64,000 nt of DNA from a virus (taxonomy: Duplodnaviria > Caudoviricetes). Location: the IMG/VR virus record IMGVR_UViG_3300031853_000029, positions 6,657 through 70,656 of that record. The stretch is one strand, 5' to 3'. The position numbers were made by a program, and so were the translations under genes. Under the pieces are notes generated by a model. It was not told the origin of the DNA. It made no database searches and saw only the letters and a list, made by a program, of their open reading frames with translations. Shown here piece after piece: positions 20,121-64,000 of the stretch (position 1 is its first letter; every line of letters starts with the position of its first letter).

Positions 20121-20146
20121 CGCCGAAAAAGGCATTCATTTTATGG
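20121..20146 (+). promoter_or_regulatory. 26-bp repeated motif, copy 1
   Basis: CGCCGAAAAAGGCATTCATTTTATGG, followed directly by RBS. Confidence 0.6.
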
Positions 20147-20157
20147 AGGAAACTATA

Positions 20158-20379
20158 ATGACACTCAAGCAGTTAAAAGGCGTTGTAGATCAGCTTCTGA
20201 ACGAAGGGGCTGATCCAGGCGCCGAAATATACGACAGTGATCACCACTTTTTGGAAGAGATTTCGTATGCTGACATTGACTACGAAACCAACGGAAAGGG
20301 TGTTTATCTGGTCTTTTCGGAAGAAGTCGACGGAGGAGCTTGCGACAGCGATGATGCATGTGAATTCGACTTCGATTAA
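20158..20379 (+). CDS. Acidic hypothetical protein (moron-like cassette)
   Basis: GGAGG RBS, ATG 20158. Confidence 0.65.
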   Translation: MTLKQLKGVVDQLLNEGADPGAEIYDSDHHFLEEISYADIDYETNGKGVYLVFSEEVDGGACDSDDACEFDFD

Positions 20380-20409
20380 CTATTATATTTTGCAAGGAGA
20401 TGATCCAAC

Positions 20410-20898: not shown

Positions 20899-21102
20899 GT
20901 GGGTATGGACAATTACGATACGTGGTTAAAAGTAGGCGGAAGTTTTCGATGTGGATGCTGCCTCAGGATGCCAACATTTGTCGATATTCGGGATCTGAAG
21001 GTCTGCCCGCATTGTCAGCATATAATGAACTGGTATGAAACAGATCACGGGTTACTCCCCATGAGGAACCAGGAAGGAGAAGATCGGCATGAAGAAGAGT
21101 AA
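20899..21102 (+). CDS. Small Cys-rich (zinc-ribbon) protein
   Basis: CGCC...CPHC. Confidence 0.5.
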   Translation: MGMDNYDTWLKVGGSFRCGCCLRMPTFVDIRDLKVCPHCQHIMNWYETDHGLLPMRNQEGEDRHEEE

Positions 21103-21355: not shown

Positions 21356-21376
21356 CACGTAACTTATATTCTGACT

Positions 21377-21411
21377 CGGGGCGGCCGATCGACGCTGCCC
21401 CGGTCTTCTTT
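21377..21411 (+). terminator. Rho-independent terminator
   Basis: CGGGGCGGC-CGATCGAC-GCTGCCCCG then TCTTCTTTT. Confidence 0.65.
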
Positions 21412-22427
21412 TGGAGGTTGACGTTAAGATGATTATATTCTACACTGATGCCGAGCACCTTGACAACTATAGATCTCCTCAGACGGAAGGGGAAAAGAAA
21501 ATGGACGACAATATGACCGTCATGGAATTTATAGAAGTATGGCTGGAAACCTTCAAGAAAAATTCAGTAAAGACTGCCTCATTCGAACGACTGGTAACGT
21601 CGAAAAAGTCGCTTGCCAATTACGAGATCGCAGAGAAAAAGATCGGTGACATCAACTTCTTTGATATTCAGAGGTATGTTAATCAGCTCGTGGAAGACGG
21701 ATACAGCCTGAGCAATATCAAAAAACAGCTGAGGATCGTTACTTCCCCACTGAAACTGGCTGCGGCCATGAAAATAATCAGGGCTGATCCGTCGATCGGC
21801 GTTAAGCTTCCGAACGAAACCAAAGTAAAAAAGCCGACGAAGGAAGTCGTCGCCTATACGAACGATGAACAGGAACGGCTGTTTAAGCGCGTTGCCGTCA
21901 GTCCGATGAACGCCGGGTACATGGGAATTCTCTTCATGATCGAAACAGGGCTCAGGAGCGGGGAACTGCTGGCGTTGAAGTGGAAGGACGTCGAGCTGGA
22001 TCGAAGCCGGCTGCATGTTCACGCGACCATACTAAATCCGATGAGCAACGTAAAAGCAGTCTATCAGGACTCGCCGAAGACCAAATGCAGTAACCGGATC
22101 GTTCCGCTGACGCCAAAAGCAAAGGCCATTTTGAAGAGACTGATAGAGGACCGGCAGACAGAATGGGTCTTCGAGGACAAGGGGAAGCGCTACAGCTATA
22201 AGCAGCTGATGTACCAGACAAAAAAGTTATGTCGGGAAGCCGGTGTAACCTACTATGGCGAGCATGTGTTTCGGCATACCTTTGCGACAAACTGCTACTA
22301 CAAAGGAATCGACGTGAAGATTCTGAGTAGGCTGATGGGCCACAGCAGTGTCAGCGTGACGTACAACACGTACATCAATCTGTACGGCGACGGCTTCGAC
22401 GAAATGTACGCTGCGCTTTGCCTGTAA
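21411..22427 (+). CDS. int: Tyrosine recombinase (phage integrase)
   Basis: TGLRSGELLAL (Arg I), HVFRHTFAT (His-x-x-Arg), LMGHSS...TYNTY (catalytic Tyr); start may be ATG 21501. Confidence 0.93.
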   Translation: MEVDVKMIIFYTDAEHLDNYRSPQTEGEKKMDDNMTVMEFIEVWLETFKKNSVKTASFERLVTSKKSLANYEIAEKKIGDINFFDIQRYVNQLVEDGYSLSNIKKQLRIVTSPLKLAAAMKIIRADPSIGVKLPNETKVKKPTKEVVAYTNDEQERLFKRVAVSPMNAGYMGILFMIETGLRSGELLALKWKDVELDRSRLHVHATILNPMSNVKAVYQDSPKTKCSNRIVPLTPKAKAILKRLIEDRQTEWVFEDKGKRYSYKQLMYQTKKLCREAGVTYYGEHVFRHTFATNCYYKGIDVKILSRLMGHSSVSVTYNTYINLYGDGFDEMYAALCL

Positions 22428-22510
22428 AACTAGGATAAAGGTCTTTTGGGCAAAAATGAAAAATCTGCGTCCCGCCACCACGCTGAAACGCAGATAAATC
22501 AAGGAAACCA

Positions 22511-23217: not shown

Positions 23218-23223
23218 GCACGT

Positions 23224-23554: not shown

Positions 23555-23583
23555 TTTAAAACGGATATTCCTGGAGGTGCGAA

Positions 23584-23848: not shown

Positions 23849-23897
23849 AAATCGAAAAAATCCCGGGAGGGAAAATTTGGAAAAATGTTTTGATATT

Positions 23898-23923
23898 CGC
23901 TGAATTTACACCTTTCTTGGTGG
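23898..23923 (+). promoter_or_regulatory. 26-bp repeated motif, copy 2
   Basis: CGCTGAATTTACACCTTTCTTGGTGG. Confidence 0.6.
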
Positions 23924-23938
23924 AAAGGAGATGAGCAG

Positions 23939-24211: not shown

Positions 24212-24271
24212 TTCCTGATTGGCTTCGCGGAAACGCGCGGCCTTTTATTTTTTTGCCCAAAAGTCACACCT

Positions 24272-24297
24272 CGCGTAAATTACTACCCTCTTAATGG
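24272..24297 (+). promoter_or_regulatory. 26-bp repeated motif, copy 3
   Basis: CGCGTAAATTACTACCCTCTTAATGG. Confidence 0.75.
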
Positions 24298-24333
24298 AGG
24301 AGACACCCTACCAAATTTAAGGAGGAAACACAA

Positions 24334-24636: not shown

Positions 24637-24654
24637 GCCACCCTCTTCTTTTTT

Positions 24655-24680
24655 CGCCGAAATTACACGTATCTTAATGG
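24655..24680 (+). promoter_or_regulatory. 26-bp repeated motif, copy 4
   Basis: CGCCGAAATTACACGTATCTTAATGG. Confidence 0.75.
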
Positions 24681-24816
24681 AGATATAATGTGCGGTATAA
24701 ACGCAGTGGAGGCTCCCTCGTGGAGGGATAGTTAGCCACGATACAATCGTCTAATGGTAGGACACCGGGCGATTCCGGAGACGTAGGTTCGAAGCCTACA
24801 GACATTATATTTTTTT
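24679..24816 (+). ncRNA. Candidate structured ncRNA with tRNA-like D- and T-arms
   Basis: Ends pair (ATATAATGT 24683-91 / ACATTATAT 24802-10) then U-tract; D-arm GTCTAATGGTAGGAC; T-arm GTAGG-TTCGAAG-CCTAC; no ORF; no acceptor stem. Confidence 0.6.
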
Positions 24817-24842
24817 CGCCGATTTTACACCTGTCATGATGG
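24817..24842 (+). promoter_or_regulatory. 26-bp repeated motif, copy 5
   Basis: CGCCGATTTTACACCTGTCATGATGG. Confidence 0.75.
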
Positions 24843-24853
24843 AGGTGACAGAT

Positions 24854-25033: not shown

Positions 25034-25071
25034 TATCCAAAAAGCGGTCGAAACGGACCGCTTAACTTTTT

Positions 25072-25097
25072 CGCCGATTTTACACCCGTCATGATGG
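25072..25097 (+). promoter_or_regulatory. 26-bp repeated motif, copy 6
   Basis: CGCCGATTTTACACCCGTCATGATGG, near-identical to copy 5. Confidence 0.75.
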
Positions 25098-25108
25098 AGG
25101 TGATTCAC

Positions 25109-25456: not shown

Positions 25457-25505
25457 CCAGTGAAAGGAGATCGTTATATTTCAACGGTCTCTTCTTTTTT
25501 TTTTT

Positions 25506-25531
25506 CGCGAAAAATACATACCTCTTGATGG
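25506..25531 (+). promoter_or_regulatory. 26-bp repeated motif, copy 7
   Basis: CGCGAAAAATACATACCTCTTGATGG. Confidence 0.75.
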
Positions 25532-25569
25532 GAACATATTACTTTACGACCAAAAAGGAGGAAAACGGT

Positions 25570-25903: not shown

Positions 25904-25943
25904 AGCGGAGACGTTGCGAAAGCAGCTCTCTGCTTTTCTTTTT
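25904..25943 (+). terminator. Terminator of repeated AAGCGGAGAC...TCTCTGCTTT family
   Basis: AGCGGAGACGTTGCGAAAGCAGCTCTCTGCTTTTCTTTTT; relatives at ~28088, ~28629, ~32992. Confidence 0.7.
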
Positions 25944-25969
25944 CGCCGATTATACACGGTTCTTAATGG
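25944..25969 (+). promoter_or_regulatory. 26-bp repeated motif, copy 8
   Basis: CGCCGATTATACACGGTTCTTAATGG. Confidence 0.75.
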
Positions 25970-25980
25970 AGGTGATATGA

Positions 25981-26205: not shown

Positions 26206-26226
26206 TCGGCCCTTTTCTTTTTTATT

Positions 26227-26252
26227 CGCGAAAAATACATACCTCTTGATGG
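26227..26252 (+). promoter_or_regulatory. 26-bp repeated motif, copy 9
   Basis: CGCGAAAAATACATACCTCTTGATGG, identical to copy 7. Confidence 0.75.
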
Positions 26253-26380
26253 AGAGCCGGCCTATCTTAAGGCAAAGGAGGTTAAAAGAGATTATCTGGC
26301 GATCATGTGAAGGGAGATAACCCGAAGTAGCGGTATGCGCAACCGCGAAACGGACGATTCTCCCGTTTCTTTTTCTTTCA
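26251..26380 (+). ncRNA. Candidate small RNA cassette
   Basis: Motif then ~130 nt lacking an RBS-led ORF; hairpins GCGGT/ACCGC and GAAACGG/CCGTTTC plus U-tract. Confidence 0.35.
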
Positions 26381-27729: not shown

Positions 27730-27738
27730 CGATGATCT

Positions 27739-27764
27739 CGCGAAAAAAGCATCCCTCTTAATGG
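27739..27764 (+). promoter_or_regulatory. 26-bp repeated motif, copy 10
   Basis: CGCGAAAAAAGCATCCCTCTTAATGG. Confidence 0.75.
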
Positions 27765-27796
27765 AAATACAAACGAATAAAAGGAGGTTGCTAACT

Positions 27797-28078: not shown

Positions 28079-28156
28079 GATTCCAAAAAGCGGAGACGCG
28101 GCAAATGCTGCTCTCTGCTTTCTTTTTTTCAAAAATGTCACATCCGGTTACTAATT

Positions 28157-28182
28157 CGCCGAAATTACCATCATCTTTATGG
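28157..28182 (+). promoter_or_regulatory. 26-bp repeated motif, copy 11
   Basis: CGCCGAAATTACCATCATCTTTATGG. Confidence 0.75.
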
Positions 28183-28212
28183 AGAGACTCTATATATTTT
28201 AAAGGAGTGAGG

Positions 28213-28350: not shown

Positions 28351-28378
28351 TGCTCGGTACCTTTATTTTTCAACGCTT

Positions 28379-28404
28379 CGCGTAAATTACCGGCCTCTTT
28401 ATGG
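28379..28404 (+). promoter_or_regulatory. 26-bp repeated motif, copy 12
   Basis: CGCGTAAATTACCGGCCTCTTTATGG. Confidence 0.75.
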
Positions 28405-28446
28405 GAAGGTACGGAAAGTACCTCATAACGAAAGGAGACTGGAAAA

Positions 28447-28623: not shown

Positions 28624-28668
28624 TTCCCAAAAGCGGATGCGCTGCAAATGCAGCCATCTGCTTTTCTT

Positions 28669-28694
28669 CGCGGAAAATACATCTCTCTTAATGG
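28669..28694 (+). promoter_or_regulatory. 26-bp repeated motif, copy 13
   Basis: CGCGGAAAATACATCTCTCTTAATGG. Confidence 0.75.
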
Positions 28695-28729
28695 CAAGGT
28701 TTATATCTACTGAAAAGGAGGAATGCATT

Positions 28730-28933: not shown

Positions 28934-28965
28934 AGACTCGGAGGGCTTCTTGTCCTCCCCTTTTT

Positions 28966-28991
28966 CGCGGAAATTACATGCCTCCTAATGG
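28966..28991 (+). promoter_or_regulatory. 26-bp repeated motif, copy 14
   Basis: CGCGGAAATTACATGCCTCCTAATGG. Confidence 0.75.
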
Positions 28992-29023
28992 TAGAGACTA
29001 TATTATTTTTAGGAGGTATCGGT

Positions 29024-31317: not shown

Positions 31318-31760
31318 CAGCGCAAAAACGATTCAGGCCCACGCCGTGCCCTGACTGCGGCACGAAGCCCAGCCTGTGGGAGGTCACTTTTTTCGGATAC
31401 AGGTCTCCGAAATTCAAGGTTGAATGCCCGGAATGCAAGAAAAAGACGAACTTTTATGATACGGCCCGCGGTGCCGCTTCCGCATGGGAGCGAGGGACCT
31501 ATATGATTCCCAGGGAGGACCGGGAGAATCTCGACAACGACAGCATTGCGGAGCTCATGGGAAAAATCATGGAAGAAATAAATAAGGATTACCAGCGGAT
31601 CGCTTCCGGGCACACCCCGTCCAGATGGGAAAGGACATATATTAAAGAACTTGAAGAATTCGTGATTGAAAATCCGTACATGCTCCCCTACGACCGGGAA
31701 TACGTCGTCGAAGAGATGAGGCGGCAAGCTGAAAAAACGCGAAAAAAGCAGGCTTCTTAA
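31314..31760 (+). CDS. Lar-like (restriction alleviation) zinc-ribbon protein
   Basis: PTPCPDCG...VECPEC...A..AW pattern in N-terminal half. Confidence 0.5.
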   Translation: MTAQKRFRPTPCPDCGTKPSLWEVTFFGYRSPKFKVECPECKKKTNFYDTARGAASAWERGTYMIPREDRENLDNDSIAELMGKIMEEINKDYQRIASGHTPSRWERTYIKELEEFVIENPYMLPYDREYVVEEMRRQAEKTRKKQAS

Positions 31761-31763
31761 TGG
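31738..31763 (+). promoter_or_regulatory. 26-bp repeated motif, copy 15
   Basis: CGCGAAAAAAGCAGGCTTCTTAATGG, overlapping the end of the upstream CDS. Confidence 0.7.
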
Positions 31764-31791
31764 ACGGATATAAAAAAGGAGGTATTCTACA

Positions 31792-32406: not shown

Positions 32407-32587
32407 GCTTAAACTGAAGCCGTATTGCCAGCACTGCGGCGGATTTGAGGCGGAAACCAGGCATCAGGTACTTTTCAGCGGAGCGGATATTTATGAGGAC
32501 TCGACGATCATTGTATGCGAAAATGCCCTGAAATGCGAGAACCTTTACAATTATATCTGCCGGAGCATGGAGGACAAAAGGCAATAA
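32399..32587 (+). CDS. Cys-rich mini-protein
   Basis: YCQHC...C...C. Confidence 0.55.
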   Translation: MIELKLKPYCQHCGGFEAETRHQVLFSGADIYEDSTIIVCENALKCENLYNYICRSMEDKRQ

Positions 32588-32590
32588 ATT

Positions 32591-32616
32591 CGCGAAAAAA
32601 GCACGCCTCTTAGTGG
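32591..32616 (+). promoter_or_regulatory. 26-bp repeated motif, copy 16
   Basis: CGCGAAAAAAGCACGCCTCTTAGTGG. Confidence 0.7.
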
Positions 32617-32652
32617 GAGACCTAATATATCAAAACAAGGAGGATTCTCAGC

Positions 32653-32982
32653 ATGGGAGAGAACGGAACGAAGAAGGTAACTGGTATTCCTGAGAACGAA
32701 ACCCTGCTTCAGAAAGCGAAGCGGAAGGCCATGACGGCCGTGAACTGGGGCAAAACCCACTGGAAGGGGCTCGCGATCGGCGCGGTTGCCATCGGCGGAG
32801 GAGCATACATGCTCAGCCGGCGGGGCAGCAATGACGATGGAGAGACTGTTCCAAGCGGATATGCCCTCGGGGACGGAGAGACCGCCCGCGAGGCGATTAA
32901 CAGGGTATTCGACTCGGAAACCGGCGACGGATCCGACATCGGACCCGATGACGATGAACCCGACGAAGTTGATGAATATTGA
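32653..32982 (+). CDS. Membrane-anchored protein with acidic tail
   Basis: GLAIGAVAIGGGAYML glycine-zipper TM; AAGGAGG RBS. Confidence 0.65.
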   Translation: MGENGTKKVTGIPENETLLQKAKRKAMTAVNWGKTHWKGLAIGAVAIGGGAYMLSRRGSNDDGETVPSGYALGDGETAREAINRVFDSETGDGSDIGPDDDEPDEVDEY

Positions 32983-33053
32983 TGACCCGACAAGCGGAGA
33001 CGCTGTGTAAGCAGCTCTCTGCTTTTCTTTTCGACCGGGGAGGAGCGCAGAAT

Positions 33054-40138: not shown

Positions 40139-40260
40139 ACAATGGCAGGAATAACATTTCTATTGTCGGGCTGACAAAGAACGTAGATAATCTGAGTACA
40201 GGCCGTATTGGTGTCCATTGAAAGAAATTCACGATGATCATGAAGGCGGTTAAAAAAATC

Positions 40261-40286
40261 CGCGAAAAAATCACCTCTCGTTATGG
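40261..40286 (+). promoter_or_regulatory. 26-bp repeated motif, copy 17
   Basis: CGCGAAAAAATCACCTCTCGTTATGG. Confidence 0.7.
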
Positions 40287-40299
40287 AGGTGATCTACAG

Positions 40300-44458: not shown

Positions 44459-44496
44459 TCTGAAAAAAAAAATCCCACGGCGTGACAAATTATATT

Positions 44497-44522
44497 CGCG
44501 AAAAAAGCAGTGTTGTTTATGG
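44497..44522 (+). promoter_or_regulatory. 26-bp repeated motif, copy 18
   Basis: CGCGAAAAAAGCAGTGTTGTTTATGG. Confidence 0.7.
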
Positions 44523-44559
44523 AGATGGTAAATGCGAAACAACCATCTCTTTATTTTTT
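44522..44559 (+). terminator. Leader terminator / attenuator directly after motif
   Basis: GAGATGGT...ACCATCTC then TTTATTTTTT. Confidence 0.65.
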
Positions 44560-52917: not shown

Positions 52918-52948
52918 TTCTTACAGGAAAAGTGTGACAGTTTTTTTT

Positions 52949-52974
52949 CGCGAAGTTTACAGCGTTCTTTATGG
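52949..52974 (+). promoter_or_regulatory. 26-bp repeated motif, copy 19
   Basis: CGCGAAGTTTACAGCGTTCTTTATGG. Confidence 0.7.
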
Positions 52975-53070
52975 AGAGAGGTTTGACCAATTTGACGGCA
53001 GCGATAAAAAGCGGTCACGCATGGCTCAGTAAGAGTCGGAAGCGTTTTGGACACACCTCTTCTATTTTTT
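52973..53070 (+). ncRNA. Structured leader / attenuator-like RNA
   Basis: AGAGG 52977-81 / CCTCT 53056-60 and CCAA/TTGG closing stems, internal hairpins, then U-tract. Confidence 0.5.
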
Positions 53071-53090
53071 CGCATGAACGGGGAACTTCT

Positions 53091-53384
53091 ATGAAAAAAG
53101 AAAACGCCTTTCAGGGAAAGCTGATCAAAGAGCTCCATGAACGGTTTCCGGGCTGCGTTGTCCTGAAGAATGACCCTAATTATATTCAGGGCATCCCGGA
53201 CCTTCTTGTTCTATATAGATCCCGCTGGGCCGCTCTTGAATGCAAAAGGAGCGAGAATGAAAGCCGTCGACCAAATCAGGAATATTACGTGGACAAGCTC
53301 AATGGCATGAGCTTCTCTGCATTTATATTTCCCGAAAACAGAGAGGAGGTTTTACATGATCTGGAAGAAGCATTCCGAGCTTGA
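53091..53384 (+). CDS. VRR-NUC / Holliday-junction-resolvase-like PD-(D/E)xK nuclease
   Basis: ENAFQ..LI...GIPDL...ALECK...PNQ. Confidence 0.75.
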   Translation: MKKENAFQGKLIKELHERFPGCVVLKNDPNYIQGIPDLLVLYRSRWAALECKRSENESRRPNQEYYVDKLNGMSFSAFIFPENREEVLHDLEEAFRA

Positions 53385-53966: not shown

Positions 53967-56885
53967 ATGGAACCTTTGATTCCTTACACCGAAGAAGCGT
54001 TCCGTGCTTTATTCGAAAGCGATACACCGGAGAACGCTTTGGCTCATGTTGGTAAACCACATGACGGTCCCATTCCGCATTCCGGGCGATACGCCTGGGG
54101 AAGCGGTGAATCTCCATATCAGCGGAGTCTGGACTTTATGACACACTACAATGCACTGAGGCGTTCCGGAATGTCGGATAAGCAGATTGCCGAAGCCGAT
54201 GGGCTGACTTTGAATCAGCTCAGAGCTCGCAAATCAAATTCCGGCGCTGATGTGCGGCACCACAATGTGGCAGTTGCCACAAAACTTAAGGCCGCTGGCT
54301 GGTCAACCACGGCTATTGGTAGGAAATTCGGCGTGAACGAGAGCACCGTCAGAGGCTGGCTGGACGAAGATGTTCAGAAGCGGAAAGACGCGTCTCTCGG
54401 CACAGCCAACATGCTTTCCGACCAGGTTAAACAATTCAAATACGTAGAAGTCGGGAAAGGCGTCGAACAGCATCTTGGCGTCAGCAGAACGAAAATGGAT
54501 TACGCCTTGGAAATGCTGAAACAGTCCGGTCAGTATGAAGTGAAAGATATTCGCATTGACCAGGGCGCCAAAGGAAAGAAGACCCGAATTCAGGTTCTCG
54601 TCCCTGTTGGAACGGAACGTAAGGAAATCTATGATCACAAAGATAAGATAGCTATTCCCAACCTTGGTGTTTACACAGAGGACGGTGGCGCAACTTGGAA
54701 CAAGGTAGAAGCCCCGGTTCCGATCGACATGTCTAGAGTGTTCATAAATTACACCAGTCCCGACATGTCTAGGGGAGGGGTACTAAAGGATGGCGTGATC
54801 GAAATCCGGCCTGGCGTTCCGGACCTGAGTCTTGGAAATGCCATGTATGCTCAGGTACGCATTCGTGTTGGAGACGACAAGTACATGAAAGGCATGGCAG
54901 TCTATTCTGACAAAGTGCCAAAAGGGTATGACATTATCTACAACACAAACAAGACCGAAGCCCAGGCAGCCAAAGTATTCAAACCGATGGCCAAGGATAA
55001 GGACGGGAACATCGATCTCATCAACCCATTTGGTGCAACTATCAGAACGGATGATTATAGCGACAATCCGGATCTGATCAAGTGTCAGCGGCACTATATT
55101 GACCCCAAAACGGGCGAACGGAAGTTAAGCGCGCTCAATGTAGTGAACGAAGAAGGCAACTGGAAGGAATGGGGTCGAACCCTGTCTGCCCAGATGCTGA
55201 GTAAGCAGGAGCCTTATCTCGCTGAACGGCAGCTTAAGGTAATGTACAACCGGAAGTTGGACGAGTTTAACGAGATTCTGGGTCTGACGAATCCGACTAT
55301 TCGTGCTCACCTTTTGGAAGGCTTTGCGGATGATTGCGACTCCAGCGCCGTGCACCTGAAAGCCGCGGCTATTCCCGGTTCGGCTTCGCATGTCATTATC
55401 CCAATCCCTTCTATGAAGGAGAACGAGATCTACGCGCCCAACTATGAGAATGGTTCCCGGGTTGCCCTGATTCGTTATCCTCATGGCGGAAGGTTCGAGA
55501 TCGCTGATCTTACCGTCAATAATCTGAACAAGGAAGCCCAGAAGATTCTTGGTGCTGCTCCCGATGCTGTAGGTATTCATCACTCGGTTGCGGCCAAGCT
55601 GTCAGGCGCCGACTTTGATGGGGACACTGTTACGGTCATTCCGAACAATTCGGGCGACATCAAGAGTATGGCCGCCTTGAAAGGGCTGAAGGACTACGAG
55701 CCTAAGGTCCTCTATGCGAAGTCCGACGATCAGATTAAGACCGGAAAACCAAAGAATAAGAAGGACATGTATGATGCTAACGGCAAGCAGCTCTATGATA
55801 ACTTCGACACGCAGCGTCAGATGGGAGAGATTTCGAATCTGATTACAGACATGACCATCAAGGGCGCTCCGACCGAAGACATTTGCAAAGCCGTTCGGCA
55901 TTCCATGACTGTTATTGATGCCGAGAAGCACAACCTTGACTGGAAACGATCTTACGAGGAGAATCAAATCAGAGAACTGAAGAGCAGGTATCAGGGAGTC
56001 AATCCTAATGGCAGCCTGAAGGGCGCTTCGACTCTGATCTCTGCCTCGAAATCCAAGGTCTACCTTCCCGATCGGAAGGCTGGTGTCTGGGCCCATGACG
56101 AGAACGGTAAAGGGTATCGGCAGCTGTATGATCCGGAGACTGGCGCAAAGCTTTATTCAAATACGGGCAAGATGAGCTCGAAAAAAGTCTACGACAAGAA
56201 CGGCGACTACGTTTGGAAGCAGTTTCCGGTCGAGATCACTACTACAAAGATGGCCGAGACTCAAGACGCCTATTCGTTGTCTTCGGGAACAAGAATGGAA
56301 GGCATTTATGCCAACCATGCCAACCGTCTGAAGGCTCTTGCTAATCGGGCCAGAAAAGAAATTATGTCAACGGAAGACGTTCCTTACAGTCCGGCTGCAG
56401 CAAAACGCTACTCCGCTGAGGTAGATTCTTTGAAAGCCAAGAAGAACGAAGCTGACAAGCACAAGCCTTTGGAGCGTCGTGCCGGTGCAATCGCTACCAG
56501 TCTATTCCAAATGAAAGCTGCCGAAGATCCAAGCTTATGGGAAGACCATGATCGGGCCAAAAAGGAAAGGGCCCGTCTGATGGACTATGCACGGAAACAG
56601 ATGGGTGAAAAGCGTCCTCGAATTGCGTTTACAGATAAGGAATACGAAGCGATTCAGGCTGGCGCCGTTCGTAAGACGTTCTTGAAGGACTTGATTAAGG
56701 AATGCGACCAGGACGCCCTGAAACAGCGTGCCATGCCTCGCCAGTGGAAGGCGATGTCTCCTGCTAAACTTTCCAGAGCTCGTCAGATGCTTAAGAATGG
56801 CGCCACAAACATCGAAGTCGCTCAGGCCCTTGGTGTCTCGACTTCGACGCTTTACGACGCTCTTAACGGCAAAACCGGCTCGTAA
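53967..56885 (+). CDS. Putative single-subunit double-psi-beta-barrel RNA polymerase (YonO/RdRP-related) with terminal HTH domains
   Basis: GADFDGD at 55605-55625; LIRYPHGG; YAQVR...KGMAV; HTHs at both termini. Confidence 0.8.
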   Translation: MEPLIPYTEEAFRALFESDTPENALAHVGKPHDGPIPHSGRYAWGSGESPYQRSLDFMTHYNALRRSGMSDKQIAEADGLTLNQLRARKSNSGADVRHHNVAVATKLKAAGWSTTAIGRKFGVNESTVRGWLDEDVQKRKDASLGTANMLSDQVKQFKYVEVGKGVEQHLGVSRTKMDYALEMLKQSGQYEVKDIRIDQGAKGKKTRIQVLVPVGTERKEIYDHKDKIAIPNLGVYTEDGGATWNKVEAPVPIDMSRVFINYTSPDMSRGGVLKDGVIEIRPGVPDLSLGNAMYAQVRIRVGDDKYMKGMAVYSDKVPKGYDIIYNTNKTEAQAAKVFKPMAKDKDGNIDLINPFGATIRTDDYSDNPDLIKCQRHYIDPKTGERKLSALNVVNEEGNWKEWGRTLSAQMLSKQEPYLAERQLKVMYNRKLDEFNEILGLTNPTIRAHLLEGFADDCDSSAVHLKAAAIPGSASHVIIPIPSMKENEIYAPNYENGSRVALIRYPHGGRFEIADLTVNNLNKEAQKILGAAPDAVGIHHSVAAKLSGADFDGDTVTVIPNNSGDIKSMAALKGLKDYEPKVLYAKSDDQIKTGKPKNKKDMYDANGKQLYDNFDTQRQMGEISNLITDMTIKGAPTEDICKAVRHSMTVIDAEKHNLDWKRSYEENQIRELKSRYQGVNPNGSLKGASTLISASKSKVYLPDRKAGVWAHDENGKGYRQLYDPETGAKLYSNTGKMSSKKVYDKNGDYVWKQFPVEITTTKMAETQDAYSLSSGTRMEGIYANHANRLKALANRARKEIMSTEDVPYSPAAAKRYSAEVDSLKAKKNEADKHKPLERRAGAIATSLFQMKAAEDPSLWEDHDRAKKERARLMDYARKQMGEKRPRIAFTDKEYEAIQAGAVRKTFLKDLIKECDQDALKQRAMPRQWKAMSPAKLSRARQMLKNGATNIEVAQALGVSTSTLYDALNGKTGS

Positions 56886-57199: not shown

Positions 57200-57290
57200 T
57201 GGCACCCGGGGGAGGGGGTCCGCGAAAAACACCCCCTCCCTGCATCGCCGGCCTCCTCGGAAAAGCCCCGGAGGGATATTTTGGTGGTGC
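57200..57290. other. GC-rich inverted-repeat region, candidate cos/packaging site
   Basis: GGGAGGGGGT...ACCCCCTCCC; noncoding gap upstream of TerS-HNH-TerL. Confidence 0.4.
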
Positions 57291-57311: not shown

Positions 57312-57340
57312 TTGACGGTGGATTTTAGCGGTGTTAGACT
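57312..57340 (+). promoter_or_regulatory. Host sigmaA/sigma70-type promoter
   Basis: TTGACG-17 bp-TAGACT with extended -10 TG. Confidence 0.55.
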
Positions 57341-57430
57341 ATTATTATATTTTCGGCCGCATCTTTTCCTTAAAAGTGGCCTGAAAGTACACAGAAACGG
57401 TGCCTATAATTGATCTGGGAGGTTACGAAC

Positions 57431-59057: not shown

Positions 59058-59417
59058 GTGGTCCCAACGGAAGAGAGTATTCTGCAGTCGATTAAGAAGA
59101 TGCTTGGTCTGGAGGCGGACTACACGCCTTTTGACCAGGAATTGCTGATCCACATTAACAGCGCGTTATTCACGCTGATGCAGCTCGGCGTTGGGCCTTC
59201 TGGTGGGTTTGACGTCGACGGAGATGAAGAAACCTGGAGAGATTTTCTTGGCGACGATTTAACAAAACTGAAAGCTGTAAAGAGCTACATTTATTACGAC
59301 GTTCGGCTTGCCTGGGATCCACCCTCTTCAGGAACAGTGGCCAAACAATTCCAGGAGAAGCACGAGGAGCTCGGGTGGCGACTGCGGCATCAGGTAGAGG
59401 CAGGTGATACCGAGTGA
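59058..59417 (+). CDS. Head-tail adaptor-like protein
   Basis: SILQSIKKMLG...FD..L.IHINS...L.QLGVGP...EL.WRL. Confidence 0.55.
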   Translation: MVPTEESILQSIKKMLGLEADYTPFDQELLIHINSALFTLMQLGVGPSGGFDVDGDEETWRDFLGDDLTKLKAVKSYIYYDVRLAWDPPSSGTVAKQFQEKHEELGWRLRHQVEAGDTE

Positions 59418-60262
59418 TTTACGAAAGCAATTATTATGTCGGATCCGATCTTAATGGCGATAGCCTGAGCCACCATGGTGTTCCGAATCAGAAATGGGGC
59501 GTTCGCAATGGACCTCCCTACCCTGTCCAGCGCGGCGGAGCTGTGCACTACAACATCGGTAAGATGACTGATAAGACAAAAGCGACTTTAGGAAATGCCG
59601 CCAAAAGCGTTGTAGGAAAAACCAGCAGTGCTTTTAAAAACTGGAAGAATGGCCTGAAGACAGAACTTGCAGTTAAACCTACTGACAATTTGCTCCTTAA
59701 AAACTGGCAGAAGAAACAGCTCAGGATTAGCGACATGACCGACGATGATCTGAAACGGCGGATCGATCGAAAACGGCTGGAAGAAACCTACAAACATGCG
59801 CTTCGAGGCGATTTCTCTGATCCGAAGACCTGGAAAGGCAGCAAAGGCGGCAAGAACGGAGACGGAAACAATAATAACAAAGGGAAAGAAGCTGCTGACA
59901 ATATTCTCAAAAGAGTCGGAAATGCCGCGGTTGAAGGTTTAACAAGAGGCCTCAGTGCTAAAATTGAAGAGAGTATGGTTACCAAGTCAAAAGCTAAGGC
60001 TGCCAGGAAAGAAGCTCGCAGAGACGCTATGGCGGAGGTCGCAAGAGAGGCTGCTAAGGAACGCGCCGAGTATCGTGCTGAGCGTAGAAACGAAGCTTGG
60101 AAAGAGCGCCAAGAACGGAACAGAACCTACAGGGAAAGCAGATGGAATGGCGACGACGGAGCAATGGATCCGCAGATGGGCTGGACAGACCGTCGTAGAC
60201 AGGCCGGTTCATTAGGAAGCGGCGGATATTACGCTCCTCCCGGTTCCTGGACGGTTACCTGA
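59414..60262 (+). CDS. Basic head-module protein with HHGV..QKWGVR motif
   Basis: DSLSHHGVPNQKWGVRNGPPYP; MTDDDLKRRIDR; Lys/Arg-rich. Confidence 0.75.
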   Translation: MIYESNYYVGSDLNGDSLSHHGVPNQKWGVRNGPPYPVQRGGAVHYNIGKMTDKTKATLGNAAKSVVGKTSSAFKNWKNGLKTELAVKPTDNLLLKNWQKKQLRISDMTDDDLKRRIDRKRLEETYKHALRGDFSDPKTWKGSKGGKNGDGNNNNKGKEAADNILKRVGNAAVEGLTRGLSAKIEESMVTKSKAKAARKEARRDAMAEVAREAAKERAEYRAERRNEAWKERQERNRTYRESRWNGDDGAMDPQMGWTDRRRQAGSLGSGGYYAPPGSWTVT

Positions 60263-60289
60263 CGCGGCATGAAAGACGGGTGACCTGTA

Positions 60290-62032
60290 ATCCTATCTAA
60301 CACAGCTACTCCAAAATATTACGGGATGTTCCGAGACCAGGTTCTTCGGAACGAAATTCCTGTATGCGAAAATATCAGTCTGTATATGAACCTGATCGAC
60401 GAGCGAATCGCCAATCCGATGTTTTATTACGACGACGATCCTGTCGAGCGGTACATATCTTTCTGCGAGAACGAACTGACGCTCACTGACGGCGCGGACA
60501 TGAAGCTTCTTGACTCCTTTAAGCTCTGGGCAGAGGATTTGCTCGGGTGGTATTATTTCGAGGAGCGTAGCGTTTACGAGCCGGGTCAAAATGGTGAGGT
60601 CGGAGGGTACAGACAGAGGCTGGTGAAGCGCCGGCTTATCAACAAACAGTATTTAATCGTAGGACGTGGCGCCGCAAAGAGTCTGTATTCGACAACGATA
60701 CAGGCTTATTTTCTTGTTTGCGACAAATCCACGACCTATCAGATTGCCACGGCGCCAACCATGCGTCAGGCAGACGAAATTCTGGCCCCTATCCGGACGG
60801 CTATTGCCCGGAGCAGAGGGCCGGTTTTCAAATTCCTTACAGCAGGTAATCTGCAGAACACAACCGGCAATCGGCTGAACCGTCCGAAGCTCAGTTCAAC
60901 CAAGAAGGGCATAGAGAACTTCCTGAGTAACAGCAGCCTTCAGGTTCACCCGATGACAGTTGATAAGCTGCAGACCTGGCGATGCAAGGTTGTAAGCATT
61001 GATGAATGGCTTTCCGGAGAAACCCGGGAAGATGTTGTCAATGCTGTGGAACAGTCGGCCGCAAAGGCAGGCGACTATATGATTCTGGCAACCAGCTCCG
61101 AGGGTACGGTTCGAAACGGCGTCGGTGATACGATGAAGATCGAGCTGATGAAAATTCTTCGGGGCGAATACCGGAATCCGCACGTATCAATCTGGTATTA
61201 CAGATTGGACGACAAGAAGGAAATCGCGGACCCGTATCTGTGGCGAAAGGCTAATCCCAATCTTGGTTATACAGTGACCTACGAAACCTACCAGCGGGAA
61301 GTGGAAAGAGCCGAAAACAATCCGAGCTCCGCAAACGACACGCTAGCAAAGAGATTCGGTATCCCGATGGAAGGCAGCACGTTCTTCTTTACGTATGAGC
61401 AAACGTTGTGTCATCCGAAAACCGATTTCTGGGGGATGCCTTGTGCTATGGGTGCGGACTTAAGTCAGGGCGATGACTTCTGTGCGTTTACGTTTTTGTT
61501 CCCGATTGGAGACGGTCGATTTGGCGTTAAGACCAGATGCTATATCACGAGCAGGACTCTTTTAAATCTTCCGGCCGCAACCAGGAATAAATACGACGAT
61601 TTCATTAACGAGACGAGTCTGGCTGTACTTGACGGAACCGTTCTGACCATTGACGATGTATACGATGATCTGGAACGATTTATCGAACGCAGTCAGTACG
61701 ACGTACGGGCGTTCGGGTTTGACCCTTATAACGCCAAAGAATTTGTTGAAAGATGGACGAGGGATTACGGGCCTTACGCTGTGGAGAAAGTAATTCAGGG
61801 CGCAAAGACAGAAAGCGTGCCGCTCGGAGAACTCCGAAATCTTGCCGAAGAGCGATCTCTTATATTTGATCAGGGAATTATGCAATATTGCATGGGCAAC
61901 TGTATCGCGATCGAGGACACAAACGGAAACCGAAAACTGGCAAAGAAAAGGTATGAGCATAAGATCGACGCAGTTGCAGCTATGATGGATGCGTATATTG
62001 CATATAAGCTAAACAGCGAAAACTTTGATTGA
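60290..62032 (+). CDS. terL: Terminase large subunit
   Basis: Walker A GRGAAKS, Walker B SIDEW, nuclease GADLSQGDDF and KIDAVAAMMDA; first in-frame ATG is 60326, probable true start ATC 60290. Confidence 0.92.
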   Translation: MLSNTATPKYYGMFRDQVLRNEIPVCENISLYMNLIDERIANPMFYYDDDPVERYISFCENELTLTDGADMKLLDSFKLWAEDLLGWYYFEERSVYEPGQNGEVGGYRQRLVKRRLINKQYLIVGRGAAKSLYSTTIQAYFLVCDKSTTYQIATAPTMRQADEILAPIRTAIARSRGPVFKFLTAGNLQNTTGNRLNRPKLSSTKKGIENFLSNSSLQVHPMTVDKLQTWRCKVVSIDEWLSGETREDVVNAVEQSAAKAGDYMILATSSEGTVRNGVGDTMKIELMKILRGEYRNPHVSIWYYRLDDKKEIADPYLWRKANPNLGYTVTYETYQREVERAENNPSSANDTLAKRFGIPMEGSTFFFTYEQTLCHPKTDFWGMPCAMGADLSQGDDFCAFTFLFPIGDGRFGVKTRCYITSRTLLNLPAATRNKYDDFINETSLAVLDGTVLTIDDVYDDLERFIERSQYDVRAFGFDPYNAKEFVERWTRDYGPYAVEKVIQGAKTESVPLGELRNLAEERSLIFDQGIMQYCMGNCIAIEDTNGNRKLAKKRYEHKIDAVAAMMDAYIAYKLNSENFD

Positions 62033-62102
62033 TCTAACTGCCCGCGGAACAAAGCAATGGAAGATAAGAAAGGGCGAATAACTCAAAGAGAGGTATACGA
62101 AC

Positions 62103-64000
62103 ATGAGTCAGTTCATAATCAAAGGAATTGATTACACAGATGAAAGCTTGCAGCACGGGCTTGGCAAAGGCAGCGGTAGAGGTCGGCCGGTTGGATCCAA
62201 AAATGGTCAGATTATGCCCGGTGCGGCTTATATGAAAGATTACAAAATCGTTGGGCAGAAGGCTGTTGGCGAACCCGCTGTGCCCGGTGCAACGAATACC
62301 CGCCGTCGGACACAGAGTACACTAAACCGGAGGCAGGCGAGTTCGTCCATCAGGAACCGGTTTTCTGCGCCTAGCAGGACCGGCGGTAGCAGACAGACCA
62401 CGACCGCCGTTCGACCGGCACCTCGGGCGAATGTCGTGACGAATCGGTATACAACACCGACCAAGACAAGCAGTGAACAGACGACGGCCACCGTTCAGCA
62501 GCCGCAGGCAAACACAATTACAAATAGGTTTACAGCTCCAAATAAGGCGGACAGTAATGGTCGGGTATCTACGCCTGCTGAAAATGTTTCTAAAGGTAAG
62601 CGGGCCGTGGAGGCTCTTATGGAAAAGGGCAATGGTCAAAGTCAGACCCAGAAGACGGCCAGTAACGACAACAGCAGAGAGGCCGCGTCTCAGACGAGCC
62701 AGCCCAAACGCAGCAGGGACATGAGCACGGCAGAACTTCGTGCTCTTGACCCCGTCGGTGACTGGCCGTGGAGTGAACGAAGGGTAAAGGCCGCCGGTGG
62801 TCTTGAGGCACGCGAAGGACGTCAGATTGTTTACGATAATCCGACGCTGAGCGACGACTATAAGAAGCAGATCGCCAAAAGATATGGCGACAGTAACGGA
62901 CGGTCATATCCGAAATATCTTGAAGAAGGCGACAATAATTCCACCCAGACAACTAGCAATGAACCCGCGGCTAGCGCCGAGCAGAATAACCGTGAGGCAA
63001 CGAATAGCGTTCTAAATCGTGATGCGAGCACGATGGACAGTTCTCAGACTGCTCCAAGCCAGACTTCCGCACAGAATAACGGCAACGCGATAAACAATGC
63101 ATTGCAGCGGGATGCCCGGCTGATGCCCCGTTCTCAGACTGCGCCGAGTCAGGTTCCAGAAACTTCTGCACAGGATAATGGTAATGTTGCTAATAACAAT
63201 GCGACAGCTGCTCAGGCACAAACCACGGCAGCTCAGGAAACCCCGGAGCAGAAGAGTTTTTGGGATAATGTCGGCGGGTGGTTTTCTCAGGCCGCTAAGG
63301 ATATCGGCGATACTGCTACCGGCGCTTGGAACACTGTCAGCGGCGCAGCCGGAGATGCTGCCAAATGGGTTGGCGATAGACTCGGTCCTGCCGGAGAATG
63401 GGCACAGACGGCGTATAACGATGTCAGCGATTGGGTTGGCGACCGCGCTAAAGATTTGAATAACTGGTGGAATGGTCAGGATGCTTATACGCAGGTTGCT
63501 GATCCGAATAATCCCGGGGTTACCCGCGACATTCAGGGGCATCAGGCAGGCGCACGAGAGCAGATTGGTAACTGGCTTGGATCTGCCGGGCAGTGGATCG
63601 GCGATCGCGCTGCTGACGTAGGCAACGCTGCGAATACGGCCGGTCAGTGGATCGGCGATCGCGCTGCTGACGTTGGTAATGCTGCGAATGCTGCTGGTCA
63701 GTGGATTGGAAATACTACGGGCAACGCTGCGAATACGGCCGGTCAGTGGATCGGCGATCGCGCTGCTGACGTTGGTAATGCTGCGAATGCTGCTGGTCAG
63801 TGGATTGGAAATACTACGGGCAATGCAGGGCAGACGGTTAGTAACGCCGTTAACGATGCCGGTCAGTGGATTGGTAATACAGCGAATAATGCAGGACGTG
63901 ATTTGAACAACTGGTGGAACGGCACCGATCAGTCGGTTCTGGGAATTCCCACTGGTCACACTCCCGGGGCTAGGGAAAATATTGGCAACTGGTTTAATAA
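62103..64000 (+). CDS. Large low-complexity/repeat protein of head module, truncated by window end (not in ORF track)
   Basis: ATG 62103 after AGAGG; reading frame spot-checked as open to 64000; starts MSQFIIKGIDYTDESLQHG; T/S/Q/N-rich; 18-aa QWIGDRAADVGNAANTAG repeats. Confidence 0.75.
   Translation, partial: MSQFIIKGIDYTDESLQHGLGKGSGRGRPVGSKNGQIMPGAAYMKDYKIVGQKAVGEPAVPGATNTRRRTQSTLNRRQASSSIRNRFSAPSRTGGSRQTTTAVRPAPRANVVTNRYTTPTKTSSEQTTATVQQPQANTITNRFTAPNKADSNGRVSTPAENVSKGKRAVEALMEKGNGQSQTQKTASNDNSREAASQTSQPKRSRDMSTAELRALDPVGDWPWSERRVKAAGGLEAREGRQIVYDNPTLSDDYKKQIAKRYGDSNGRSYPKYLEEGDNNSTQTTSNEPAASAEQNNREATNSVLNRDASTMDSSQTAPSQTSAQNNGNAINNALQRDARLMPRSQTAPSQVPETSAQDNGNVANNNATAAQAQTTAAQETPEQKSFWDNVGGWFSQAAKDIGDTATGAWNTVSGAAGDAAKWVGDRLGPAGEWAQTAYNDVSDWVGDRAKDLNNWWNGQDAYTQVADPNNPGVTRDIQGHQAGAREQIGNWLGSAGQWIGDRAADVGNAANTAGQWIGDRAADVGNAANAAGQWIGNTTGNAANTAGQWIGDRAADVGNAANAAGQWIGNTTGNAGQTVSNAVNDAGQWIGNTANNAGRDLNNWWNGTDQSVLGIPTGHTPGARENIGNWFN

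Follow-up and report, generated by a model that had tools for sequence, protein, structure and literature searches.

A strand-specific candidate promoter element that accompanies a single-chain two-barrel RNA polymerase in a phage of the 1706/actinophage supercluster

Polymerase gene and genome organisation

The window (the whole stretch of phage DNA analysed, 64 kb) encodes a protein that motif, family and predicted fold confirm as a single-chain two-barrel RNA polymerase (Table 1). The initial annotation had described it as a single-subunit DPBB RNA polymerase with its own helix-turn-helix (HTH) domains, and this description holds. The protein matched phrog_4291 with 1066 bits, and residues D549, D551, G552 and D553 are invariant in the 23 relatives compared, which argues for an active enzyme. 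Pfam RdRP (PF05183) stayed below threshold (20.8 bits, gathering cut-off 23.8), and a sequence-profile search of the PDB retrieved no polymerase. With the AlphaFold model (pLDDT 78.9, but <50 for residues 1-43 and 45-47), Foldseek retrieved QDE-1 (E=2.4e-8), P23-45 gp64 (4.8e-6) and RDR2 (6.6e-5), further P74-26 gp62, gp96, crAss gp66 (a weak match, E=0.011) and beta-prime subunits. Global TM values were 0.24-0.38, and there were no folds other than two-barrel ones among the matches listed. The HTH domains resemble, though weakly, sigma region 4 and LuxR-type HTHs. No second polymerase was recognised within the window.

The enzyme as such is not new, since its family was named a putative RNA polymerase in a 2021 preprint (Koert et al., bioRxiv 10.1101/842583); at least 250 phage records share about 45% identity with it over 97% of its length. 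Among the genes reported there as common to the whole supercluster, the polymerase is the sole recognised bearer of DNA-binding domains. The phage shows the features of this 1706/BI-AM-AU-AW-DJ-CC-EL supercluster: the same polymerase family (DxDGD, HTH at both ends), a protease-capsid fusion, the polymerase at the right end together with a conserved end sequence, and the same gene order (helicase, VRR-Nuc, exonuclease, polymerase, small gene, genome end, HNH, connector, DUF7211 protein, terminase, portal, protease-capsid fusion). It differs from the supercluster of 10.1101/842583 in having an integrase and a size of about 70 kb. The probable right end aligns with those of Bilo, 1706 and Mudcat. 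The sigma-70-like site beyond it may be a promoter from which host polymerase transcribes the structural arm. The integrase ATG follows the stem of a terminator (21376-21403) by 25 nt and its T-tract by about 10 nt.

Table 1. Features of the polymerase locus and copies of the 34-nt element (positions refer to the window)
Feature	Position	Strand	Remark
Element copy 1	20116..20149	+	Degenerate, score 11.8; after terminator 20069-20095, leads lysis unit
Element copy 2	23893..23926	+	
Element copy 3	24267..24300	+	
Element copy 4	24650..24683	+	Leads ORF-less cassette
Element copy 5	24812..24845	+	
Element copy 6	25067..25100	+	
Element copy 7	25501..25534	+	
Element copy 8	25939..25972	+	
Element copy 9	26222..26255	+	
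Element copy 10	27734..27767	+	
Element copy 11	28152..28185	+	
Element copy 12	28374..28407	+	
Element copy 13	28664..28697	+	
Element copy 14	28961..28994	+	
Element copy 15	31733..31766	+	
Element copy 16	32586..32619	+	
Element copy 17	40256..40289	+	
Element copy 18	44492..44525	+	Leads replication unit
Element copy 19	52944..52977	+	Leads VRR-Nuc endonuclease-exonuclease-polymerase unit
Tyrosine integrase	21429..22427	+	No element upstream
Leader hairpin of copy 18	44521..44559	+	From GGAGA, then T-run; terminator-like, z=-3.1
Structured leader after copy 19	52977..53071	+	Closed by GAGAGG/CCTCTT, then T-run; attenuator-like
Single-chain two-barrel RNA polymerase (P0001)	53967..56885	+	972 aa, phrog_4291; profile match and fold
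Conserved N-terminal peptide	54039..54122	+	LAHVG...SGRYAWGSG...PYQ, residues 25-52
N-terminal helix-turn-helix	54282..54365	+	HTH_23, residues 106-133; Pfam
DFDGD metal-binding motif	55611..55625	+	Residues 549-553; invariant core in relatives
C-terminal helix-turn-helix	56757..56876	+	Residues 931-970
Probable right genome end (cos region)	57208..57254	+	G-run, TCCGCGAAAAA half-motif, C-run, CTGCATCGCCGGCCT
Sigma-70-like site	57312..57340	+	TTGACG, 17 nt, TAGACT, with TG; just inside probable left end
DUF7211-type protein (P0002)	59414..60262	+	Motif at residues 18-37; directly upstream of large terminase

The 34-nt element and its distribution

Eighteen strong copies and one weak copy of a 34-nt element, all on the + strand, were found. 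It consists of a T-rich stretch, TCGCR, 7 nt that are mostly A/T, ACA, 4-5 nt, YTTAAT and GGAGA. With a PWM derived from these same 18 copies, the strong ones reach 30-45 bits and the next best site about 12-13. Independently of the PWM, a 10-base pattern spanning 26 nt has 13 exact matches, again all on the + strand, against 0.11 expected, and none of 100 shuffles reached this number. A start codon follows each copy at a distance of 9-150 nt, and copies are usually preceded by a terminator (called at most about 60 nt upstream in 12 of the 19 cases). The earlier observation of a fixed 26-bp non-sigma-70 motif at the head of accessory and replication units is confirmed.

The element recurs in the same register in IMG/VR relatives, Streptomyces phage Bilo and Lachnospiraceae prophages, all of which have the polymerase, as well as in Lactococcus phage 1706 (12 copies) and Arthrobacter phage Mudcat (7 copies), which have it too. 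Each of the 13 prophage loci examined carries both. Deposited phage genomes with the pair number at least 250, and species-representative bacterial genomes contain it in at least 309 places. For 72 of 96 relatives' loci, a copy lies 100-2,000 bp (in most about 950 bp) upstream of the polymerase gene, and the nuclease-polymerase unit is headed by a copy and then a terminator-like leader. The same arrangement had been noted for the present phage, where the polymerase was placed in the unit behind copy 19 and an attenuator-like leader, as confirmed here; ATG 53091 is likely where the endonuclease really begins.

Of 69 matches in five host genomes (together about 19 Mb), 58 fall inside polymerase-bearing prophages and on the polymerase strand, and matches outside prophages occur at the control rate (10 matches for the reversed pattern, 4 for a pattern mis-spaced by one base). 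Among 201 Lachnospiraceae genomes, the element was present in all five polymerase-positive ones and in 14 of 196 polymerase-negative ones (Fisher p about 4e-6). Co-occurrence in related genomes, proposed as a check in the initial annotation, is seen in one register across two phyla and follows the polymerase within a host family. Retention of the element by relatives without the enzyme had been named as an observation that would speak against the pairing: the remaining 182 polymerase-negative genomes lack the element, but the 14 do carry it, and genuine-looking single copies exist in genomes in which no polymerase was detected. Given these solitary copies, the host enzyme may be able to use the element. 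Among the new findings here are the element and its co-inheritance with the polymerase, from gut Firmicutes to Streptomyces phages.

Geometry of the candidate promoter and alternative readings

A transcription circuit of the phage's own, made up of the polymerase and private promoters that are not of the sigma-70 type, is strongly supported by these sequence comparisons. According to our proposal, which we regard as probable, the 34-nt element is a promoter used by the two-barrel polymerase. The enzyme would locate the upstream TCGCR/ACA boxes through its built-in HTH domains, melt the A/T-rich TAAT box and begin transcription at the purine run just past it (TAAT|GGAGA), as T7 polymerase does after TATA. 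Transcription from the 19 promoters would cover the lysis unit, 13 early cassettes bounded by terminators, and the middle, replication and nuclease-polymerase units; the terminator-like leaders of the last two would delay or insulate them. We infer all three components, i.e. use by this polymerase, start position and recognition domain. As the element also heads the unit of the polymerase gene, a first source of the enzyme must be assumed.

A start directly after TAAT, at GGAGA, is suggested by three kinds of RNA structure that set in 0-4 nt past TAAT: the hairpin at 44521, the stem of the ORF-less cassette, which closes from the GGAGA of copy 4 (24679), and about 70 different leaders in relatives. 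Alternatively, the leader hairpins may serve to terminate upstream read-through and would then be uninformative on the start site.

Sigma-70 promoters need a separation of 16-18 nt between their -35 and -10 hexamers, and factors of the sigma-70 family need an A at position 2 of the -10 hexamer. The geometry of the element does not fit sigma-70: in all phages compared, the distance to the TAAT hexamer is 14 nt from the TCGCR box and 5 nt from the TTTACA-like (ACA) box. Sixteen of the 18 strong copies have CTTAAT, CTTGAT or CTTTAT as their hexamer and so no A at position 2. Sigma-70-like sites are not enriched between 20 and 40 kb (24 versus 26 expected). The copies in Mudcat and Bilo do have a sigma-70-type hexamer (A at position 2, T at position 6), and many relatives have a perfect TATAAT as downstream box; at such copies a role of a host sigma factor is possible.

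The TATAAT or near-TATAAT boxes of Mudcat, Bilo and many prophages would also suit a host RNA polymerase promoter that needs a phage-encoded specificity factor, either the 972-aa protein or some other conserved protein of the phage. Having bound TCGCR/ACA, such a factor would recruit host polymerase to the box resembling TATAAT, or redirect it there; the DFDGD protein may act elsewhere, e.g. in priming. The two HTH domains with their faint resemblance to sigma region 4 and LuxR-type domains, and the solitary copies in genomes without polymerase, agree with this explanation. We nevertheless judge it quite unlikely, because the A that the sigma-70 family needs is absent from those 16 copies, structures that begin 0-4 nt past the hexamer misfit a start 5-9 nt downstream, and the invariant catalytic core of the 23 relatives argues for an active polymerase.

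Still less probable is that the element is no promoter but a regulator binding site (a lysogeny operator) or a site of recombination or cassette exchange through which small early genes are shuffled. In its favour, TTCGCGAA forms an 8-bp palindrome, the early region is built of terminator-motif-gene cassettes with some near-identical copies, and similar cassettes occur in host defence islands. Relatives, however, have lost the palindrome (TCGCA), and the whole element is asymmetric, strictly one-stranded and placed at a fixed short distance ahead of ribosome sites; it also heads large conserved units (replication, nuclease-polymerase) at syntenic positions in relatives. An unusual class of host promoter, read by an alternative sigma factor and unrelated to the polymerase, would account for the A/T-rich sequence, the -10-like box and the T-rich upstream region, but is highly improbable in view of the near absence of matches from the five host chromosomes outside prophages, the lack of the element in the 182 Lachnospiraceae genomes and its identical register in phages of Actinobacteria and Firmicutes, whose hosts share no such sigma factor.

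Possible virion delivery, lysogeny and known phage polymerases

If the phage polymerase reads the element, its first molecules might arrive with the virion, a possibility towards which we remain sceptical. Circumstantial support comes from the motif-led polymerase unit, the position of the gene beside the cos site and the N-terminal peptide, which is predicted to be disordered and is conserved. The initial annotation had proposed an L-x-H-x-G tag common to the polymerase and head proteins. Part of this stands: the N-terminus of the polymerase (LxHxG...SGRYxWGSG) is conserved across the family, and P0002 is probably of the DUF7211 type (PF23847; a 25-residue motif, LxH[HY]G[IV]xG[QM]KWG[VI]RR), as it matches an HMM of 31 DUF7211-type instances from relatives (E=7e-9) and DUF7211 is present in its nearest Atlas clusters; a Pfam hmmscan of P0002 gave no match at E<=0.01. 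The link between the two is weak. L-x-H-x-G alone is not significant in the phage proteome (5 in plausible ORFs, about 3 expected by chance), the polymerase N-terminus has no Pfam match and reaches E=0.002-6 against the DUF7211-type HMM (in a 22-sequence database), and hhalign of its motif with DUF7211 gave a weak 67% over 12 columns. A third proposed bearer (62103, 'LQHGLG') fits neither the pattern nor the HMM. The record of phage 1706 gives the label 'structural protein' to orf6, 7, 11, 12, 17, 62 and 71 and leaves the polymerase, orf75, without it.

The second proposal, lysogeny held by a feedback switch in place of a repressor, is doubtful; it rests on a repressor not having been found. 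We consider it unlikely that all parts hold jointly, i.e. that the polymerase enters with the DNA, loaded into the capsid via a disordered DUF7211-like peptide, that the motif promoters then fire without the host enzyme, that lysogens of these prophages, common in the gut, keep their lytic genes off for want of polymerase and not through a CI-type repressor, and that bacteria may put defence genes behind solitary copies to be switched on by phage arrival. The wording 'unusual for an integrase-bearing siphovirus' in the initial annotation goes too far, because the family had already been noted (10.1101/842583) and integrated prophages with the polymerase are frequent.

YonO of the Bacillus prophage SPbeta (PMC5467207) is likewise a single-chain DxDGD two-barrel DNA-dependent RNA polymerase that transcribes phage genes of a temperate siphophage, but no sequence relationship to it was detected. 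YonO serves one late operon, with a single start (PMC5467207), whereas the 19 candidate promoters described here precede early, replication and polymerase units and not structural genes; fused HTH domains have not been reported for YonO. The best phage structural matches, P23-45 gp64 and P74-26 gp62 (PMC10770324; PDB 8f72, 8f5m; E about 5e-6, TM by target 0.37-0.38), are also single-chain two-barrel enzymes that transcribe phage genes. They are non-virion proteins of about 590 aa, as compared with 972 aa here, and no HTH match was obtained in them; the first transcripts of P23-45 are made by a tape-measure-fused virion polymerase (PMC10770324). Should the polymerase enter with the DNA, the logic would be that of crAss-like phi14:2 gp66 and N4 vRNAP, with the phage enzyme early and the host enzyme maybe late. 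Both of these come from lytic podophages and are giant proteins, gp66 with 2,166 aa modelled and N4 vRNAP with about 3,500 aa. The QDE-1-like gp66 makes early transcripts that share no upstream motif (10.1101/2020.03.07.982082). No promoter consensus has been defined for YonO (PMC5467207) or gp66 (10.1101/2020.03.07.982082), the closest phage enzymes that have been characterised, and the supercluster preprint, in which the word 'promoter' is absent, puts forward neither a cis element nor a role in the virion nor a connection with lysogeny (10.1101/842583).

Promoters of the T7 type are similarly compact (about 30 bp) and one-stranded, with an upstream recognition box and an A/T-rich box abutting the start. 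The initial transcript is purine-rich in both cases (T7 TATA|GGGAGA, TAAT|GGAGA here), and phage 1706 copies read CACTATAGTAGA. Since the Pol I-like T7 enzyme and the two-barrel enzyme are unrelated, this similarity is at most convergent.

The phage thus pairs a compact conserved candidate promoter with a polymerase of an uncharacterised family that carries its own DNA-binding domains, and the pairing is directly testable because several of these phages can be grown in the laboratory, on Arthrobacter, Streptomyces, Gordonia or Lactococcus. If our reading is true, it would yield a small orthogonal expression system of a single protein and a promoter of about 30 bp, an annotation rule for the transcription units of this large phage group, and a route into lysogeny entry and exit in temperate gut phages that are independent of host promoters.

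Genome layout and the putative polymerase

The record is 70,656 bp long with 112 bp repeated at both ends; the window is its final 64 kb and carries every plausible gene on the plus strand. Read round the record, the gene order (see table) is the same as in Lactococcus phage 1706, Streptomyces phage Bilo and Arthrobacter phage Mudcat. Since positions 57208-57254 can be aligned to the right genome ends of these three phages, with a terminal CTGCATCGCCGGCCT identical to that of Mudcat, the physical genome end is probably located about 370 nt past the 972-aa polymerase gene, as in these relatives. We recognised no small terminase; the C-terminal HTH of the polymerase matches small-terminase PHROGs weakly. 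The tRNA scan found no tRNA genes, and Rfam at gathering thresholds gave zero matches in the window. In Bilo and 1706, direct repeats occur in extended intergenic stretches close to the polymerase module; these stretches may be origins or regulatory regions.

The initial annotation described a phage-encoded single-subunit RNA polymerase with HTH domains of its own, and this description holds. The 972-aa protein matches phrog_4291 over its full length (1066 bits), has its DFDGD at residues 549-553 and HTH matches at residues 106-133 and 931-970, and gives a Pfam RdRP match slightly below threshold. Among 23 relatives of 40-89% identity, the aspartates do not vary, nor do many of the residues flanking them. 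For an AlphaFold model computed from the alignment of these relatives (mean pLDDT 78.9, pTM 0.66), the top Foldseek match in the PDB was QDE-1 (E=2.4e-8), further matches being P23-45 gp64, P74-26 gp62, plant RDR2, P23-45 gp96, crAss gp66 and beta-prime subunits, and no other fold was found among the matches listed. Taken together, the DFDGD, the family, HTH and RdRP matches, the invariant residues and the predicted fold make the assignment as a putative two-barrel RNA polymerase well supported. This identification is not new: Koert et al. (bioRxiv 10.1101/842583) had already reported the family, which is known but uncharacterised, as a putative polymerase that carries DxDGD and an HTH domain at each end. 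Some GenBank records name it 'RNA-dependent RNA polymerase'; our literature search found no published demonstration of enzymatic activity for the family.

Features of the window and of related loci
Feature	Coordinates	Remarks
HNH endonuclease, connector, 282-aa DUF7211-type protein		packaging side
Large terminase	60326-62032	packaging side
Repeat-rich protein	62103-63998	at least 632 aa; tandem 15-33-aa repeats (GNAAN.AGQWIG); runs into terminal repeat of record; no Pfam or PHROG family
Portal, protease-capsid fusion, tail genes (including 2,115-aa tape measure), lysis genes		next in order
Tyrosine integrase	21429-22427	after lysis genes; no motif copy in front
Small genes and replication genes		about 30 kb, after integrase
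ORF-less motif-led cassette	24650-24815	140-nt RNA, -46.6 kcal/mol (z=-3.5); closing stem, 5' and 3' ends paired; T-arm-like GGTTCGAAGCC hairpin, U-run at end; no call by ARAGORN or Rfam
Terminator-like hairpin	after copy 44492	z=-3.1
1,306-aa ORF	46818-50738	N-terminal match to DUF5906, D5-like helicase domain; counterpart in Bilo, Mudcat and 1706 annotated 'DNA primase/polymerase' or 'DNA polymerase'
Leader after pre-nuclease copy	52977-53071	counterparts in about 70 relatives; leaders begin at GGAGA or 1-4 nt past TAAT
VRR-Nuc endonuclease	52971-53384	listed as 137-aa ORF; first 40 codons overlap structured leader; start probably ATG 53091 (97 aa, matching homologue size)
Cas4-like exonuclease		after VRR-Nuc endonuclease
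Putative polymerase	53967-56885	972 aa
76-aa gene		end of order
Probable cos region	57208-57254	G-run/C-run inverted repeat around TCCGCGAAAAA (5' half of motif), then CTGCATCGCCGGCCT; arrangement conserved at right ends of Bilo, 1706 and Mudcat
Sigma-70-like sites	57312-57340; 57381-57410	barely inside probable left end
Bilo intergenic region	L073:38817-39202	direct repeat CAGATTTCGCATG, twice
1706 intergenic region	L075:2635-3082	direct repeat CTATCACGAAAAAAC..., three times
Proteins with repeated DUF7211 motifs	L074:2501-3889 (1706 ORF7); L037:16512-19124; L053:21756-22769	spacing about 150-470 residues
Solitary motif copies, Lachnospiraceae	L158:4996-7777 (G203); L157:4996-9156 (G078); L159:4996-6229 (G063); L160 and L164 (G108, G046)	no polymerase found in these genomes

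The motif in the window, in related phages and in host genomes

The 34-nt motif combines TCGCR, ACA and YTTAAT boxes with a final GGAGA. A position weight matrix built from the copies themselves found 18 sites at 30-45 bits, all on the plus strand, the best remaining site scoring about 12-13. Position 20116 is a 19th, degenerate copy whose context is fitting, with a strong terminator before and the lysis unit after it. As an independent check without reuse of the copies, a 26-nt pattern with ten fixed bases gave 13 exact matches (0.11 expected), a number that none of 100 shuffles came near. The 19 copies leading accessory and replication units that had been noticed from the sequence were thus recovered, as was the position of the polymerase gene in the unit behind copy 52944, which is followed by a structured leader. 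Each copy has a start codon with a ribosome site 9-150 nt downstream. For 12 copies, a terminator was called in the 60 nt or so before the copy, and terminators on the plus strand are overrepresented between 20 and 40 kb (43 vs 19 expected). Thirteen copies at 23.9-29.0 kb each lead one small gene of no known family. Of the remaining copies, three stand before middle units and the others before the lysis unit, the replication unit (44492) and the nuclease-polymerase unit. The stretch from 52944 round the record to 20116, which holds the genes for packaging, head and tail, is free of copies. An ATG within the motif as universal start codon of leaderless mRNAs was rejected, being absent in 1706 and in some Bilo copies.

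The proposed check of whether motif and polymerase occur together in relatives was carried out, and the motif was seen to accompany the polymerase. The nearest relative (88% identity) has the same motif, and more distant IMG/VR relatives carry TCGCAA...ACA...TATAATGGAGA, confined to the polymerase strand. Bilo (60% G+C) has five copies in early intergenic regions, ending TATAATGAGACCCCTAC, and a sixth, weaker motif-like site directly ahead of its VRR-Nuc gene; Mudcat has seven copies, and the twelve of 1706 read TTTTACA, 4-5 bases, CTATAGTAGAAAG. When aligned, TCGC, ACA and TAAT occupy equal positions in all of these. Among the 96 loci with enough flank, 72 have a copy 100-2,000 bp (mostly about 950 bp) upstream of the polymerase gene, ahead of the endonuclease. 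Judged by the literature searched, this co-inheritance across phyla is the main new result; the Arthrobacter phage paper contains nothing on promoters, the polymerase or mass spectrometry.

The motif is not a host signal. Prophages carrying the polymerase reside in the chromosomes of cultured Lachnospiraceae, for example Hungatella hathewayi WAL-18680, [Ruminococcus] torques ATCC 27756, Lachnospira hominis, Blautia faecis and Cuneatibacter caecimuris (two). In Hungatella, the motif array begins beside an integrase that adjoins host genes (MatE, NlpC/P60), so this element is truly integrated. A 28-nt pattern with one mismatch allowed gave 69 matches in these five genomes (about 19 Mb), of which 58 are on the polymerase strand within the six prophage regions; 10 matches were obtained with the reversed pattern and 4 with a spacer one base too long. 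Relatives keeping the motif without the polymerase had been named as evidence against the circuit. In a survey of 201 Lachnospiraceae genomes, all five with the polymerase had exact motif matches (5, 2, 1, 6 and 7); of the other 196 genomes, 14 had a match (reversed control: 11 matches). One of the 14 (G185) is a fragmented assembly plainly holding a phage of this kind.

Solitary high-scoring copies (20-31 bits with the family matrix) were seen in genomes where no polymerase was found. Of four contexts inspected, two are defence islands. The first contains Type III Res, AIPR, the motif, a 377-aa Zn-ribbon protein, a 174-aa protein and a ThsB TIR protein; the second a methylase, a Res-like endonuclease, the motif, a 391-aa unknown protein, GmrSD, a WYL protein and Fic. 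At L159, the same 391-aa gene as beside GmrSD is followed by an ImpB/UmuC-type polymerase gene. At L160 and L164, the motif leads a 131-135-aa ORF, then DUF6037 or a 259-aa ORF, and no defence gene was recognised. The genes behind solitary copies could serve defence and have been placed under the phage promoter, or they could be cassettes taken up from the early regions of phages.

Possible start site and leader structures

In every phage compared, the distance to the TAAT hexamer is 14 nt from the TCGCR box and only 5 nt from the TTTACA-like box, whereas sigma-70 promoters need a spacing of 16-18 nt. The hexamer in the window's phage is CTTAAT, CTTGAT or CTTTAT, the position-2 A missing in 16 of 18 copies. 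Both features agree with the earlier view that the motif is not a sigma-70 promoter.

Predicted RNA structures of three kinds (the terminator-like hairpin, the pre-nuclease leaders and the ORF-less RNA; see table) begin at the GGAGA of the motif or 1-4 nt past TAAT. The pre-nuclease leader stems of about 70 relatives vary in sequence, with position and T-run kept. If such structures form in motif-started transcripts, transcription would begin at or just after TAAT, nearer than a sigma-70 -10 element allows and reminiscent of T7 promoters. Alternatively, the leader hairpins may halt read-through from upstream and let RNA started at the promoter pass; they would then leave the start site unfixed. 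A look for RNA sequencing runs that contain the early region listed none.

Polymerase supply and lysogeny

From sequence comparison, we consider the motif a good candidate for the promoter of the phage polymerase, and this is probably its role. All motif-led units, that of the polymerase included, would then need a first source of the enzyme. Delivery with the virion would provide one. It would also fit the lack of enrichment of sigma-70-like sites at 20-40 kb, the early half of the right arm (24 vs 26 expected, though 26 vs 19 at 40-60 kb), the location of the polymerase gene at the genome end beside the half-motif TCCGCGAAAAA near cos, and the N-terminal peptide of the polymerase. Against delivery, both YonO and gp64 are produced only once infection has begun, and the leader terminator points to regulation of polymerase synthesis. 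We regard delivery as possible but less likely than not. Our literature search found no virion proteomics for this phage family. The host enzyme could read the structural arm from the two candidate sigma-70-like sites barely inside the probable left end, which would correspond to the N4/crAss logic.

The L-x-H-x-G tag that the initial annotation saw in the polymerase and head-module proteins stood in part. As a stand-alone tag it was no better than chance, and the 632-aa protein at 62103 was rejected as a bearer. The polymerase N-terminus itself is conserved throughout the family (LxHYGTPRHSGRYPWGSG), residues 1-43 being predicted disordered (pLDDT below 50). In the same phages, proteins whose genes lie close to the packaging genes contain one or two copies of LxHHGIxGQKWGVRR, i.e. 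Pfam DUF7211, of which our literature search found no mention; a DUF7211-type motif is present in the window protein at 59414-60262 and likewise upstream of the terminase in Bilo gp6 and 1706 ORF7. The 1706 record gives ORF7 the label 'structural protein'; the 1706 polymerase has no structural label. Polymerase and DUF7211 motifs have LxH[YH]G and a later WG in common and their profile comparison is weak; a capsid-targeting role common to both is a possible candidate function. Within single proteins, DUF7211 motifs can repeat, as if these were head-to-tail fusions of tag-led modules.

That lysogeny is held without a repressor seems unlikely to us. It is true that, as initially noted for CI, no repressor was recognised in the window, nor beside the Hungatella integrase. 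When 25 small ORFs of the early and middle regions and the four longest minus-strand ORFs were scanned against Pfam and PHROG, neither a repressor nor a sigma or anti-sigma factor was recognised, the sole match of this kind being a weak excisionase-like HTH at 32979-34055. Most small ORFs, however, lack a known family, which makes this absence weak evidence. LexA-box matches were not enriched (37 vs 33 expected).

The candidate promoter, its conservation across phyla and its restriction to the phage are new as far as the searched literature shows, and all three are directly testable.
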